Assembly: GCA_011364925.1 (NCBI GenBank)
Contig: RDOA01000051.1
Coordinates: 1 to 25,792, forward strand
Source: Promethearchaeota archaeon
GTDB lineage: Archaea > Asgardarchaeota > Lokiarchaeia > Sigyniarchaeales > SOKP01
DNA: 25,792 nt
Direction: 5' to 3'
Shown: one piece after another, positions 6,853 through 12,377 of the stretch
Layout: the number at the start of each line of letters is the position of its first letter
Position numbering within the stretch: position 1 is the first letter of the stretch
Position numbers and translations under genes: made by a program
The notes under the pieces: model-generated
What the model was told of the DNA's origin: nothing
What the model saw: the letters and a program-made list of their open reading frames with translations, nothing else
Database searches by the model: none

Positions 6853-8406
6853 ATGAAAAATTCAAAATATGATCAAAATCGCGTTATTGATACTTATCCC
6901 GTTATTGTAATTGGAGCCGGTTTAGCCGGTTTAGGTGCTGCCTGCCAGCTTGTAGCTCGAGGAGAACAAGTGCTCCTATTAGAAAAACATAACGTACCCG
7001 GAGGATTTGCTACTTCTTTTGTCAGAGGTCGGTTTGAATTTGAAGGTGCATTACACGAGTTAAGCGATGTAGGAACAGAAGATAACAAGGGCGCTCTCTA
7101 CAGATTTTTGGAGCGGTTAGGAATTGTTCCTGACAAACTTAAATTTAAACAAGTTCCCGAACTTTATAGAAGCGTATATCTTGATGGATATGATGTTACA
7201 TTACCTATCGAAATGGAAGACTATAAGAATACACTCATTGAGCTTTTTCCTCACGAGAGGAAGGGAATTGAAGACTTTCTTGAGGTATGTAAAGCTGTGC
7301 TTGCTGGAGTTGAATATATCGCCTCTAAAGGTGGAAAGTATTCTCCTGGTGAAATATTAAAAGAACATCCATGGTTACCACGAGTAGCAGGGATAACCTT
7401 TTCAGAGTTAATTGAAAAGTTTTTTACAGACAAAAAGTTGATTGCAGTTGTATCTCAATTATGGGGGTATGTCGGTTTACCACCAGACAAAATGAATGCT
7501 TATGTTTTCGTTGCAATGCTAATATTTTTCTTAAAGTGGGGAGCCGTATATCCCGTAGGAAGATCCCATTCTTTATCAAGTGCCATGGTAAGTGCATTCG
7601 AAAACTTTGGTGGTTTGATTAGGTATAACGCCTTAGTCGATAAAATCTTAGTGGAGAATGGAAGAGTGTGTGGAGTTGAATTATTAAATGGGGATGTTTA
7701 TCTCTGTAAAGCAGTTATATCGAACGTAAATCCGATATGCACCACAATGAAAATGCTCACTCCTGAAATTGTTCCTGAAACCTATAAAAAAATGATATAC
7801 ACTCCTGAAATAGGACCATCCGCATTTTCTGTATATCTTGGATTGAATTCATCCCATAAGGAGTTGGGATTTACTGCTCACGAGACATTTATAAACGCTA
7901 CCTATGACATGAATCATGCGTACGAAACATTCCGAACATTAAATCCCCCCGAATATATGGTCGTAGCTTGTTATAACCACATTTATGAGAAGATATCGCC
8001 ACCAGGAACCACAGAACTGGTTCTCACGACCCTCCAAATGGGAAAATTATGGCAAAGTGTAGCGCCAGATCAGTATTTTCGCAAGAAAGACGAAATCGCA
8101 GATAAAATGATCTCCTTGATGGAACAAACGATTTGTCCGGATATAAGAGATCATATAGAAGTAGCCGAAGCTGCAACACCGTTAACTTACTATAGGTATT
8201 CGAAAAATATGGAAGGAGCGATATATGGAACTACCCAAACTGTAGAGAACGGACCATTATTACGATTAAAAAGCAGAGGACCGATTCCTGGTTTATATCA
8301 AGTAGGTGCGTGGACTAATTTTGGTGGAGGATTTACGACGACTATTGTTAGCGGTAGAATTGCTGCTGGAATGTATCTAAAAGACAAAATTGAGGATAGG
8401 TGGTAG
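6853..8406 (+). CDS. COG1233 phytoene-desaturase/RetSat-like FAD oxidoreductase, copy A
   Basis: Rossmann GAGLAG, EKHNVPGG..TSF.RGRFEFE, ATPLT, GAIYG and PIPGLY.VG.W...GGG. Confidence 0.9.
   Translation: MKNSKYDQNRVIDTYPVIVIGAGLAGLGAACQLVARGEQVLLLEKHNVPGGFATSFVRGRFEFEGALHELSDVGTEDNKGALYRFLERLGIVPDKLKFKQVPELYRSVYLDGYDVTLPIEMEDYKNTLIELFPHERKGIEDFLEVCKAVLAGVEYIASKGGKYSPGEILKEHPWLPRVAGITFSELIEKFFTDKKLIAVVSQLWGYVGLPPDKMNAYVFVAMLIFFLKWGAVYPVGRSHSLSSAMVSAFENFGGLIRYNALVDKILVENGRVCGVELLNGDVYLCKAVISNVNPICTTMKMLTPEIVPETYKKMIYTPEIGPSAFSVYLGLNSSHKELGFTAHETFINATYDMNHAYETFRTLNPPEYMVVACYNHIYEKISPPGTTELVLTTLQMGKLWQSVAPDQYFRKKDEIADKMISLMEQTICPDIRDHIEVAEAATPLTYYRYSKNMEGAIYGTTQTVENGPLLRLKSRGPIPGLYQVGAWTNFGGGFTTTIVSGRIAAGMYLKDKIEDRW
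6977..7022. repeat. 46-bp perfect inverted repeat IR1, left arm (partner 12220..12265)
   Basis: tattagaaaaacataacgtacccggaggatttgctacttcttttgt equals the reverse complement of 12220-12265 (compared by hand). Confidence 0.9.
7715..7757. repeat. 43-bp perfect inverted repeat IR2, left arm (partner 11491..11533)
   Basis: ttatatcgaacgtaaatccgatatgcaccacaatgaaaatgct equals the reverse complement of 11491-11533. Confidence 0.9.
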
Positions 8407-8413
8407 AATTTTG

Positions 8414-9598
8414 ATGGAAGACATTAAAAAATATCAAAAAGCTGAAAAAATTAAGAAACAAAGAGAAGATCTCCAAACTATTCCATGGTATTACGATGGA
8501 TTAGAGAATTTATGCAACAGAATCCACCCCGGTAAGCAACTTTTAAGAGTTACTGACATAAAGCAACTTTCTTCTGATACAAAATTGTTTCGATTTATCT
8601 CCGCGAACCCAAATAAACAACTCGCCCCATTTCGTGCTGGACAATATATAGGGTTAACGGTCGAGATAAACGGAGCGAGAAGTTCGCGCCCATTTTCAAT
8701 AGTCTCCTCTCCAAATCAGTTATCTTATTACGAGTTAGGAGTAAGAATAAAAGAAGGTGGATTTGTTAGCCCGTTTATAGTTAATAATCTAAAAGTTGGA
8801 GATATCTTAGAAGCCTCTGAACCTCTTGGAAATTTATATTACAATCCACTGTTTCACGGAAAAGATTTAGTTTTCGTAGCAGGAGGGTGCGGAATTACCC
8901 CTTTTATTTCAATGCTAAAAGATATCAGTGAGAGAGACATTCCTTTGAACATATGGTTGATATTCGGATGTTTAACAGAAAAAGACATACTCTTTAGAGA
9001 GGAGTTAGAGGATATTCAGGAAAGAAGACCAAACATTCACGTTAGATACATCCTTTCTGAACCAGATGTTGATTGGAAAGGAGAGTGTGGTTTTATCTCA
9101 AGGGATAAAATATTAAAAGAAGTTGGCACCATCGAAAAGAAGTATTTCTATGTGGTTGGGAACAGAGCCATGTACGAATATGTAAAAGAAGAATTAAGCC
9201 ATCTTGGAATACCTCAACATAGAATCTATTTCGAAGCTTTTGGAGTTCCCGATGATGTTACTAAAGTTATTGGTTGGCCTTCAGATCTAGACTCATCGAA
9301 TAAATTCCAAATCACATTAGAATACAGACAATACTCACAGAAAGAGAAAATCAAATTCGAAGCAATGTGTACAGAACCTTTACTGAATAGTTTGGAACGA
9401 GCGTTAAAAAGTAAAATTACTATTGAAAACGCTTGTAGATCTGGCGAATGCGCTCTTTGTCGAACTAAAATGATATCAGGTAAAGTTTTTGTACCCCCAG
9501 AAGTGACAGTACGCGAAGTTGATAAGTCTTTTGGCTTTATACATCCTTGCGTGTCCTACCCACTTGCAGATATCCATTTGGATTTAACATTAACTTAG
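8414..9598 (+). CDS. FNR-family flavin reductase with C-terminal plant-type [2Fe-2S] domain (PaaE/Hcr/PDR-like architecture), copy B
   Basis: FRAGQY, RPFS, GFVS, AGGCGITPF, then CRSGECALC plus a distal Cys in HPC. ATG 8414 preferred over TTG 8390. Confidence 0.9.
   Translation: MEDIKKYQKAEKIKKQREDLQTIPWYYDGLENLCNRIHPGKQLLRVTDIKQLSSDTKLFRFISANPNKQLAPFRAGQYIGLTVEINGARSSRPFSIVSSPNQLSYYELGVRIKEGGFVSPFIVNNLKVGDILEASEPLGNLYYNPLFHGKDLVFVAGGCGITPFISMLKDISERDIPLNIWLIFGCLTEKDILFREELEDIQERRPNIHVRYILSEPDVDWKGECGFISRDKILKEVGTIEKKYFYVVGNRAMYEYVKEELSHLGIPQHRIYFEAFGVPDDVTKVIGWPSDLDSSNKFQITLEYRQYSQKEKIKFEAMCTEPLLNSLERALKSKITIENACRSGECALCRTKMISGKVFVPPEVTVREVDKSFGFIHPCVSYPLADIHLDLTLT
8877..8918. repeat. 42-bp perfect inverted repeat IR3, left arm (partner 10331..10372)
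   Basis: tagcaggagggtgcggaattaccccttttatttcaatgctaa equals the reverse complement of 10331-10372. Confidence 0.9.
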
Positions 9599-9599
9599 G

Positions 9600-9656
9600 T
9601 AGTTTTTTCTTTTCTTTATAAAATAGAGATAAAAAACTAGATTAGAATTAAAAAAA
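9600..9656. terminator. Probable bidirectional terminator between the convergent modules
   Basis: A T-tract follows the + strand stop and an A-tract precedes the - strand stop. There is a 9-bp inverted repeat, tagtttttt (9600-9608) / aaaaaacta (9631-9639). Confidence 0.5.
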
Positions 9657-10838
9657 TCACATTAAATCAAGAGTTAAGTTTGTCAGTGGATAAGAAATAC
9701 ATGGGTGTATATATCCGAACTTTTGATCGACCTCTCTGATGGTTACTTCTGGTGGCATAAATATCTTCCCCGATATTAATTTTGTCCTGCATAAAGCACA
9801 AGCTCCTGAACGACACCCGCTTTCAATTTTTAATTTCGAACTAAAATTTCTTTCAATACTATTCAAAATCGGCTCAACGCATGGGGCTTCAAAACTTTCT
9901 TCTTTTACTTGGTTCATTTCAATATATCTTATCGTAATTTCAACATTATTCGAAGAATTGAGATTGCTAGGCCAACCTATTACTTTAACAACATCATCAG
10001 GATTACCGTAAGCCTCGTAAGTAATACGATGCTTAGGAACTCCAAGATCTTCTAATTCTTTGAAAACGAATTGATACATATCTCGATTTCCAACCACATA
10101 AAAGTATTTACCTTTAACATCTCCAATTACCTTCTTAATTATATCTTGAGTGATAAATCCACATTCTCCTTCCCAACCAGAATCTGCTTCTGAAAGAACA
10201 TATTGTACCTTAACATTAGAGCGGCGGTTTTTTATATCTTCAAGCTCTTGTCTAAAGATTATATCTCCTTCAGTAAGACAACCAAATAACACCCAAATAT
10301 TGATAGGAAGCATCCGTTCAGAAATGTCTCTTAGCATTGAAATAAAAGGGGTAATTCCGCACCCTCCTGCTATAAAAACCAAATTCTCGCCATGAAATAG
10401 ACTATTGTGATAGAAAGTGCCTAAAGGTTCAGTACATTCAACGATATCGCCTATATCTGAATTATTATAGAAGTATACGCTTACAAATCCATCTTCTTTC
10501 TTTCGAATACAAAGCTCATAATAAGCGTGTTGATTCGGAGATGAAACCAAAGAGTAGGGTCTTGCAGTCCTTACTCCGTTTATCTCTACTGTAAGACCGA
10601 TATATTGACCTGCTCGAAATGGTGGCAATATTTTTGTCGATTTTGCCGGAATTAATCGATATAATTTCGTATCGTGAGAAAGGTTTTGAATATCTGATAT
10701 TTGTAACCACAACTTACCAGGATGAATATTATCATGGAGATTTTCCATACCGTCAAAATATTCAGGGACTTCTAGGACTTTTTCGCGCCATTCTTTGAGC
10801 TTTTGAGCGTAAGTAAATTTTTTCAAGTCTTTAAACAT
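9657..10838 (-). CDS. FNR-family flavin reductase with C-terminal [2Fe-2S] domain, copy B'
   Basis: FRAGQY, RPYS, AGGCGITPF and CRSGACALC...HPC. Collinear paralog of 8414..9598. GGAGGGGTG lies upstream of the ATG. Confidence 0.9.
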   Translation of the reverse strand: MFKDLKKFTYAQKLKEWREKVLEVPEYFDGMENLHDNIHPGKLWLQISDIQNLSHDTKLYRLIPAKSTKILPPFRAGQYIGLTVEINGVRTARPYSLVSSPNQHAYYELCIRKKEDGFVSVYFYNNSDIGDIVECTEPLGTFYHNSLFHGENLVFIAGGCGITPFISMLRDISERMLPINIWVLFGCLTEGDIIFRQELEDIKNRRSNVKVQYVLSEADSGWEGECGFITQDIIKKVIGDVKGKYFYVVGNRDMYQFVFKELEDLGVPKHRITYEAYGNPDDVVKVIGWPSNLNSSNNVEITIRYIEMNQVKEESFEAPCVEPILNSIERNFSSKLKIESGCRSGACALCRTKLISGKIFMPPEVTIREVDQKFGYIHPCISYPLTNLTLDLM

Positions 10839-10841
10839 TTT

Positions 10842-12377
10842 TTACACCCCTCCCTTTTCCCTTTCTTCTAAATACATACCGGCTGCCATTCTTCCACTTG
10901 TAATACTTGTTGAATAGCCACCTCCGAGATTTACCCATGCACCCGCAAAATATAAACCCGGAATTGGACCTTTACTGTTCAATCTCAACATCGGGCTGTC
11001 TAATAAGTCTTGCTTATATCCATAGATAGCACCATTCAAACTTTTTGAATAGTGGTAATATGTTAACGGAGTGGCTGCCTCTGCAGTTTCAATACTTTCT
11101 CTTAGATTGGGATAAAGTAAATCTTCAGCCATATCAATCATGTGATTCGCCATTTCATCTTTTTTACGATGATATAGATAGGGAGAAACAGTGTACCAAG
11201 ATTTCCCATCCTGGAGTATAGTCAATACTACTTGACTCGTTCCTGGTGGCGAAATATCCTCGTACATAATATTGTAGCAAGATGCTAAAAGATATTTAGG
11301 CCGTTCTATTCTAAGGGTACTAAGGTACTGTTCTTCTAAATTATATGTTGAGTTCATAAATATCTCAAAATGAGTTATACCCAAATCTTTTGGTGTTGCG
11401 TTTAACCCTAAGTAGACAGTAAATGCGGATGGTCCGATATCTGGTGCGTATACTCGCTTTTTGTAAAGATCTGAAACATTTTCCCGAGGAAGCATTTTCA
11501 TTGTGGTGCATATCGGATTTACGTTCGATATAATTGCCTTACATGGATACTTTTCTCCGTTGAGAAGTTCAACACCAGTTACTTTTCCCTCCTTAACAAT
11601 AATTCGATTAACTAATGCGTTATATTTAATAGTTCCTCCCAATTTCTCAAAGCATTCAACGATTATATTTGACAATGCGTGAGATCTACCAACGGGGAAA
11701 ACAGCATCATCTAAGAGAGCCACTAACACGAGGAAGTAGTACATAGCATTCACTTTAGATGGAGGTAATCCCTCGTAACCCCACAATTGAGACGCAACTG
11801 TTCTTAATTTTTGATTTTTAAAACATCTATCAAAGACATCGCTAAGGGTTAATCCTCCAACGCGAGCTAAATATGGATGCTTCATTAAAATCCCTAATGG
11901 ACTCACTTTCCCCTCTTTTGCTGCTACATAATTAAATCCTTCTCTGACTTTAAAGACTATATCTCTGTATTTATTAATCCCCTTTTTCTCATTTGGGAAC
12001 AATTCTATTAATTTTTCGAAATAAGTATCTCTCTCGTTTGGAAAAGTAATGTCCAAACCATCGTAAAAAACGCTTCTACAGAGATCTGTTGGTTTTTTAA
12101 ATTCGATTTTGCTTAAAACTCCTAAATCCTTAAAGAAATCGTAAAGACTTAAAGGATGTTCCTCGGTACCGACTTCTGCTAATGCGTGTAAGGCTCCTTC
12201 AAATTCGAACCGCCCTCGAACAAAAGAAGTAGCAAATCCTCCGGGTACGTTATGTTTTTCTAATAATAATACTTTCTCTCCCGAGAGTGCAAGTTGACAA
12301 GCAGCTCCAAGACCTCCTAAGCCCGCACCAATAACAACAATAGGTAATTCATTTTTATTCATATTTTCTTTTTCCAT
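10842..12377 (-). CDS. COG1233 phytoene-desaturase/RetSat-like FAD oxidoreductase, copy A'
   Basis: GAGLGG, EKHNVPGGFATSFVRGRFEFEGALH, ATPLT, GAIYG and GPIPGLY. Collinear paralog of 6853..8406. Confidence 0.9.
   Translation of the reverse strand: MEKENMNKNELPIVVIGAGLGGLGAACQLALSGEKVLLLEKHNVPGGFATSFVRGRFEFEGALHALAEVGTEEHPLSLYDFFKDLGVLSKIEFKKPTDLCRSVFYDGLDITFPNERDTYFEKLIELFPNEKKGINKYRDIVFKVREGFNYVAAKEGKVSPLGILMKHPYLARVGGLTLSDVFDRCFKNQKLRTVASQLWGYEGLPPSKVNAMYYFLVLVALLDDAVFPVGRSHALSNIIVECFEKLGGTIKYNALVNRIIVKEGKVTGVELLNGEKYPCKAIISNVNPICTTMKMLPRENVSDLYKKRVYAPDIGPSAFTVYLGLNATPKDLGITHFEIFMNSTYNLEEQYLSTLRIERPKYLLASCYNIMYEDISPPGTSQVVLTILQDGKSWYTVSPYLYHRKKDEMANHMIDMAEDLLYPNLRESIETAEAATPLTYYHYSKSLNGAIYGYKQDLLDSPMLRLNSKGPIPGLYFAGAWVNLGGGYSTSITSGRMAAGMYLEEREKGGV

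Follow-up and report, generated by a model that had tools for sequence, protein, structure and literature searches.

Short identical inverted patches between diverged flavoprotein-reductase paralogs of a Lokiarchaeial genome as probable footprints of ectopic gene conversion

Mirrored gene pairs and their identical patches

The window analysed here, a stretch of 25,792 nucleotides, is the entire contig C62 of a Promethearchaeota (Lokiarchaeia) metagenome-assembled genome (MAG) of 3.9 Mb in 112 contigs, hereafter G000. It carries two flavoprotein-reductase gene pairs, A-B on the forward strand and B'-A' on the reverse strand, which converge across a gap of 58 bp in the map of open reading frames (ORFs). 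An exact k-mer scan of the whole window for inverted matches of at least 16 bp returned only three, of 46, 43 and 42 bp, which form the inverted repeats IR1, IR2 and IR3 between each gene and its mirror paralog (Table 1). The patches had been proposed in an earlier reading of the DNA (the original prediction), and their coordinates and lengths proved correct in all three cases, each pair of arms being exact reverse complements. With a tolerant repeat finder, the patches were visible only as parts of arms that are 70-77% similar.

Table 1. Positions of the three inverted patches and of the four genes that contain them.
Feature	Position	Strand	Description
IR1 arm in gene A	6977..7022	+	46 bp; encodes LLEKHNVPGGFATSFV, directly past the FAD-binding Rossmann motif
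IR1 arm in gene A'	12220..12265	-	exact reverse complement of 6977-7022
IR2 arm in gene A	7715..7757	+	43 bp; encodes ISNVNPICTTMKML
IR2 arm in gene A'	11491..11533	-	exact reverse complement of 7715-7757
IR3 arm in gene B	8877..8918	+	42 bp; encodes AGGCGITPFISML, start of the Pfam NAD_binding_1 match
IR3 arm in gene B'	10331..10372	-	exact reverse complement of 8877-8918
Gene A	6853..8406	+	517 aa; CrtI/phytoene-desaturase-family FAD oxidoreductase; Pfam Amino_oxidase and NAD_binding_8
Gene B	8390..9598	+	402 aa; FNR-like reductase with FAD_binding_6, NAD_binding_1 and a C-terminal [2Fe-2S] ferredoxin domain
Gene B'	9657..10838	-	393 aa; diverged B paralog (62% aa)
Gene A'	10842..12377	-	511 aa; diverged A paralog (56% aa)

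The patches lie in frame and keep one codon phase across the copies (A versus A', B versus B'). They are nested around a common centre at 9621-9624.5, the three individual centres agreeing within 3.5 bp, with 1.4, 3.7 and 5.2 kb between their arms. Words common to any two of them do not exceed 6 nt. Beyond the patches, identity between the copies falls at once to about 65%. Both edges of IR1 lie within a run of 29 identical residues and are followed on either side by synonymous differences, in line with the original prediction, which had described an abrupt end despite continuing amino acid identity; selection on the protein therefore did not trim IR1. IR2 and IR3, in turn, coincide exactly with the full extent of their identical-residue runs. 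Conserved peptides elsewhere in the copies are encoded differently, and the block AEAATPLTYY, cited as an example in the same prediction, does indeed differ in 8 of its 10 codons.

Divergence of the paralogs and comparison with relatives

The genes surrounding the patches are strongly diverged. A and A' are 56% identical in protein, 63% in DNA and 43% at third codon positions, and the corresponding values for B and B' are 62%, 63% and 44%. Outside the patches, the same codon is used at just 44% of identical residues, and synonymous divergence (dS, NG86 method) reaches 2.4 for A/A' and is not computable for B/B' owing to saturation, so that uniformly low dS, under which such runs would be expected by chance, does not apply here. 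The lengths of exact runs are bimodal, with values of 46, 43 and 42 followed by 15, 14, 13 and 11. A null distribution was generated by permuting codon pairs between alignment columns that share a residue pair, with the patches kept in the pool and 3000 trials per gene; the mean longest run was 15-17, and runs of at least 42 occurred in 0 of 3000 trials for either gene. Where residues are identical, the probability of complete codon identity throughout a patch is 10^-5.6 for IR1, 10^-4.7 for IR2 and 10^-5.6 for IR3. In a survey of 654 G000 paralog pairs less than 70% identical in DNA, the median of the longest exact run was 12 and its 99th percentile 25, and the top outliers were A/A' (46 and 43), B/B' (42) and one unrelated pair (43). 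The patches thus exceed chance, and shuffles, per-codon probabilities and the paralog survey together rule out chance or codon bias as their origin.

Orthologs of A occur in most genomes of the genus (76-86% identical), whereas orthologs of A' were found in just four other genomes (78-89% identical). The mirror arrangement A-B|B'-A' is present in three other MAGs, namely G014 (equivalent to L059/L037), L060 and L061, while G053/L062 carries A'B' at another locus and has no A ortholog. Most genomes of the genus contain A only, with A-B directly facing the enoyl-CoA hydratase gene ECH'. The relatives retrieved by a metagenome scan are at most 86% identical in protein and all lack A', and the ortholog and metagenome searches found no genome of the same species.

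In the three other mirror MAGs, the longest exact runs between A and A' or B and B' are 14-18 bp, equal to the null expectation, and the patch columns differ between the copies at 4-10 positions. The region of A that corresponds to IR1 is missing from G014 and L060, whose contigs end there, so IR1 is scorable in one other mirror genome. Within 3 mismatches, the three patch sequences have no match in any of 134 other family genomes. These absences from the mirror relatives and the family genomes show that the patches are recent and lineage-specific. In codon alignments, the G000 patches differ from every ortholog of either clade by 4-13 synonymous changes, yet the two G000 copies are identical to each other; within the patches, the G000 paralogs therefore group together against their own orthologs. 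The cysteine codon of IR3 illustrates this, being TGC in both G000 copies and ending in T in most aligned orthologs. As read from the alignments, this phylogenetic pattern is a gene-conversion signature and speaks against a conserved nucleotide element.

The patches also sit at islands that are already similar in other genomes. The IR2 columns form the most similar 45-nt A/A' window in all three other mirror genomes (38-41 of 45 positions identical), the IR3 columns fall within the top 2-15% of window similarity in the other mirror genomes, and the IR1 columns belong to the top 14% in the single genome that allows them to be scored. Placement at sites already most alike through conserved motifs is what a homology-dependent process predicts. 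For IR2 (codon-alignment columns 862-904), the similarity in G014, L060 and L061 exceeds what residue conservation alone suggests, and these columns may be a hotspot of repeated older conversions.

Outside the window, the unrelated outlier of the paralog survey constitutes a fourth isolated exact patch, of 43 bp, which encodes TRDWRRKRFTDDIDFW and is found at G000:C16:41718-41760 and G000:C7:724-766 (L105, L106). It joins two 383-aa paralogs with no assigned function, which lie on different contigs and are 66% identical in protein and 69% in DNA. This pair is the only other extreme outlier among the 654 diverged pairs, and its patch belongs to the same length class as those of the window. After these four, the longest isolated run of the genome is a 32-bp exact inverted match between divergent MttB-family methyltransferase paralogs (57% aa and 61% DNA identity) at G000:C31:41743-41774 and 42839-42870 (L107), which is possibly an older or shorter conversion.

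The remainder of the window is an acyl-CoA metabolism island, encoding an ABC transporter, an aldolase, two acyl-CoA ligases, two crotonases, two DUF35 proteins, three thiolase-fold proteins, a BKACE protein and an acyl-CoA dehydrogenase. Gene A matches the NCBIfam model crtI_fam below the cut-off of that model, and its closest solved structure, phytoene dehydrogenase 4dgk, is matched at only E 2e-23. The flanking enoyl-CoA hydratase genes ECH and ECH' are only 28% identical and do not belong to the mirror duplication. In A-only genomes, the order is ligase-ECH-A-B facing ECH'-DUF35-DUF35-thiolase-thiolase, which identifies ECH' as an old convergent neighbour of A-B rather than a mirror duplicate. 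Judging from synteny and sequence, with window positions 9599-12377 compared with L043, L083, L039, L040, L046 and L058, A'B' is a diverged second flavoprotein-reductase module, inserted tail-to-tail between B and the operon of ECH', DUF35 (ChsH2-like OB-fold) and thiolase. A mobile element was considered as the vehicle of this insertion and rejected, as no transposase is encoded in the additional 3.8 kb that separate B' from B in L060 and L061. In these two genomes (L061:12839-16438 and the matching stretch of L060), the A-B operon continues with genes for SCP2, Fe-ADH and an aldehyde:ferredoxin oxidoreductase before B' is reached. This context hints that the flavoprotein-reductase module may serve an alcohol/aldehyde/acyl-CoA pathway.

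Short-tract conversion and competing explanations

The patches probably record recent short-tract ectopic gene conversion between A and A' and between B and B' within one Lokiarchaeial lineage. The original prediction had likewise suggested recent short-tract exchange between the mirror copies, and this part of it is supported by identity far beyond chance, by the lack of the patches in the three other mirror genomes and by nucleotide states common only to the two G000 copies. Strand exchange or annealing would have been feasible only where conserved motifs hold the DNA about 80-90% alike, and inside such islands one copy would have been overwritten by the other. The exchange would then have halted at once in the 65%-identical flanks, leaving tracts of at most about 45 bp, and heteroduplex rejection by MutS-MutL may account for their abrupt ends. 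Adjacent bacterial-type MutS and MutL genes are present at G000:C59:51750-54838, and NucS/EndoMS was not detected in the G000 genome. The converted segments encode identical residues, so the events were neutral for the proteins. As a by-product, conversion would have created perfect inverted repeats of 42-46 bp, which are possible substrates for rare homologous inversion. Both elements of this scheme have archaeal precedents, since gene conversion between paralogs has been documented for mtrA (PMC4632066) and a short-patch, discontinuous, multi-tract mode of conversion for Sulfolobus (PMC3367456). The strands may have met in a RadA-type heteroduplex or through a template switch, the transfer may have run in either direction, and one event or three may have been involved.

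Several points weigh against conversion. Within the patches, the distance to the nearest orthologs is about the same for both clades, so that the donor copy is not singled out: the three patches differ from the nearest A-clade contig, L043 (82% DNA identity), at 4, 5 and 9 sites and from the nearest A'-clade genome, G014 (85% DNA identity), at 4, 6 and 11. The patches also rest on a single SPAdes-like metagenome assembly. Initiation of conversion between sequences that are 63% identical is expected to be rare, the more so in the presence of MutSL, and simple models do not predict such tightly clustered tract lengths (42, 43 and 46 bp, plus 43 bp elsewhere in the genome). That all four isolated patches fall within 42-46 bp is the one feature for which conversion does not account. 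Their near-uniform length and sharp edges could be the signature of a discrete Asgard short-patch transfer mechanism, an idea that is unlikely on present evidence. Candidate routes would be single-stranded fragments of about 40 nt annealing at replication forks or strand exchange truncated by MutSL. If such a mechanism exists, it would act even on genes that are 63% identical and would seed perfect inverted repeats, from which in-frame inversions and chimeric enzymes could later arise.

The same outcome could have been reached by template switching during replication, if the two gene pairs behaved as a giant quasi-palindrome in which the nascent strand copied short stretches of the opposite arm. 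The arms are indeed collinear inverted repeats, 58 bp apart at the centre, and the patch centres coincide to within a few base pairs. Template switching is known to homogenise the arms of inverted repeats, with arms of about 7-16 bp and spacers of no more than 70 bp (PMC8604942); the patch arms at this locus, however, are separated by kilobases. Moreover, the similar 43-bp patch outside the window joins paralogs on the separate contigs C16 and C7, with over 40 kb of contig on each side of the C16 copy, and hence a local palindrome is not needed. Template switching is an unlikely source of the patches.

False identity between the paralogs could also have been introduced by assembly, error correction or polishing. 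The genome is a 112-contig metagenome bin from an unpolished, SPAdes-like assembly, and the four isolated patches are suspiciously alike in length. Unmerged duplicates of 77-78 bp around gaps of 9-10 N and overlaps of 77 bp at contig ends point to a SPAdes-type assembly with a final k of about 77. Against an artefact, it can be reasoned that the patches are shorter than this k, so every k-mer crossing them holds unique flanking sequence and must stem from reads, and that bubble collapse needs shared k-mers on both sides, which paralogs that differ in the patch columns as those of the relatives do (4-10 differences) would not supply. In addition, three independent MAGs bear out the mirror arrangement as such. 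An artefact is therefore considered very unlikely. The duplicates have a bearing of their own on annotation: eight exact duplications of 77-78 bp stand at scaffold gaps in C11, C27 (two sites), C29, C32, C37, C59 and C72 (with 99 N in C72), and these are assembler k-mer overlaps rather than biology, which would fake tandem repeats or duplicated gene ends.

The original prediction had raised, beside gene conversion, a shufflon-like invertible enzyme locus. In such a locus, homologous recombination between the arms would reversibly invert 5.3, 3.8 or 1.5 kb as a form of phase or functional variation. Recombination at IR1 would swap the enzyme bodies between the operons, and recombination at IR2 or IR3 would yield chimeric flavoproteins or reductases. 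Repeats of 42-46 bp may suffice for rare homologous recombination, and the geometry suits inversion, as had been foreseen: the arms share codon phase and are nested, so a crossover in any patch would leave both frames open. However, no inversion was observed. The gene order ECH-A-B|B'-A'-ECH' is the only one found among related genomes, being identical in four of four mirror genomes, and in every 90-nt window the A gene of G000 is A-type and its A' gene A'-type, which excludes a fixed chimera. Past inversions or chimeras are thus rejected by synteny and sliding-window identity alike. The G000 assembly contains neither a contig with an alternative junction nor a further copy of any patch, each occurring once per strand. 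The repeats are missing from the other three mirror genomes, and inversion is hence not a conserved property of the locus. Taken together, these observations make an invertible locus highly improbable, and this part of the original prediction is not supported.

Dedicated recombination systems fare no better. Pfam scans found no serine or tyrosine recombinase and no transposase in the 24 main ORFs of the window, and no reverse transcriptase domain in the window. Site-specific recombination was rejected for want of a recombinase gene in the window and of any core above 6 nt common to the patches; the earlier judgement that homologous recombination would be likelier than a site-specific invertase agrees with both results. 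A diversity-generating retroelement was likewise rejected, with no reverse transcriptase domain in the window and repeats that are identical rather than adenine-variable. Lastly, a constraint at the nucleotide level (a small RNA, a protein-binding site or a structural element) that keeps the segments identical has a negligible likelihood and was rejected. In its favour, A and A' resemble each other unusually closely at the IR2 columns in all mirror genomes; neither the orthologs nor the 134 family genomes, however, conserve the patch sequences, and the window has no Rfam match.

Comparison with known systems

The locus is a fresh example of well-known gene conversion between paralogs and represents no new kind of system. 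Its value lies in a clean and statistically solid trace of recombination within the genome of an uncultured Asgard archaeon, which would indicate that exchange is possible even between synonymously saturated genes where a conserved motif provides a short island of similarity. From a practical perspective, such patches may mislead primer design and scans for recombination or horizontal transfer, and they constitute latent substrates for inversion.

Ectopic gene conversion between paralogs is exemplified by tufA and tufB of enterobacteria. Among archaea, the mtrA-1/mtrA-2 conversion in methanogens (PMC4632066) resembles the present case in that non-reciprocal copying produces identity within a genome while orthologs differ, and in that it is detected as runs of identity beyond expectation. 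However, the paralogs described here are far more diverged, with 63% DNA identity and saturated dS, and their tracts are sharply bounded islands of 42-46 bp at three motif-coding sites, the genes as a whole not having been homogenised. The short-patch mode of Sulfolobus acidocaldarius (PMC3367456) moves multiple short intervals and separates markers that are 20-30 nt apart, which fits the several small independent patches of this locus. It is nevertheless tied to a natural absence of MutSL and to nearly identical donor DNA, whereas G000 possesses MutS and MutL and the paralogs are highly diverged.

Shufflons and other inversion switches (Rci, Hin/Gin and the hsdS genes of type I restriction-modification systems) share with this locus the presence of inverted repeats in coding sequence and the possibility of an in-frame segment swap, but the locus has no dedicated recombinase, no common core and no orientation variants in relatives, and its repeats are not conserved. 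Template switching in quasipalindromes (PMC8604942, PMC7202029) is similar in that a short stretch of imperfect inverted repeats is made perfect; its known arms, however, measure from a few up to about 16 bp and are spaced by tens of base pairs, in contrast to the arms of 42-46 bp at distances of 1.4-5.2 kb that distinguish the Lokiarchaeial patches.

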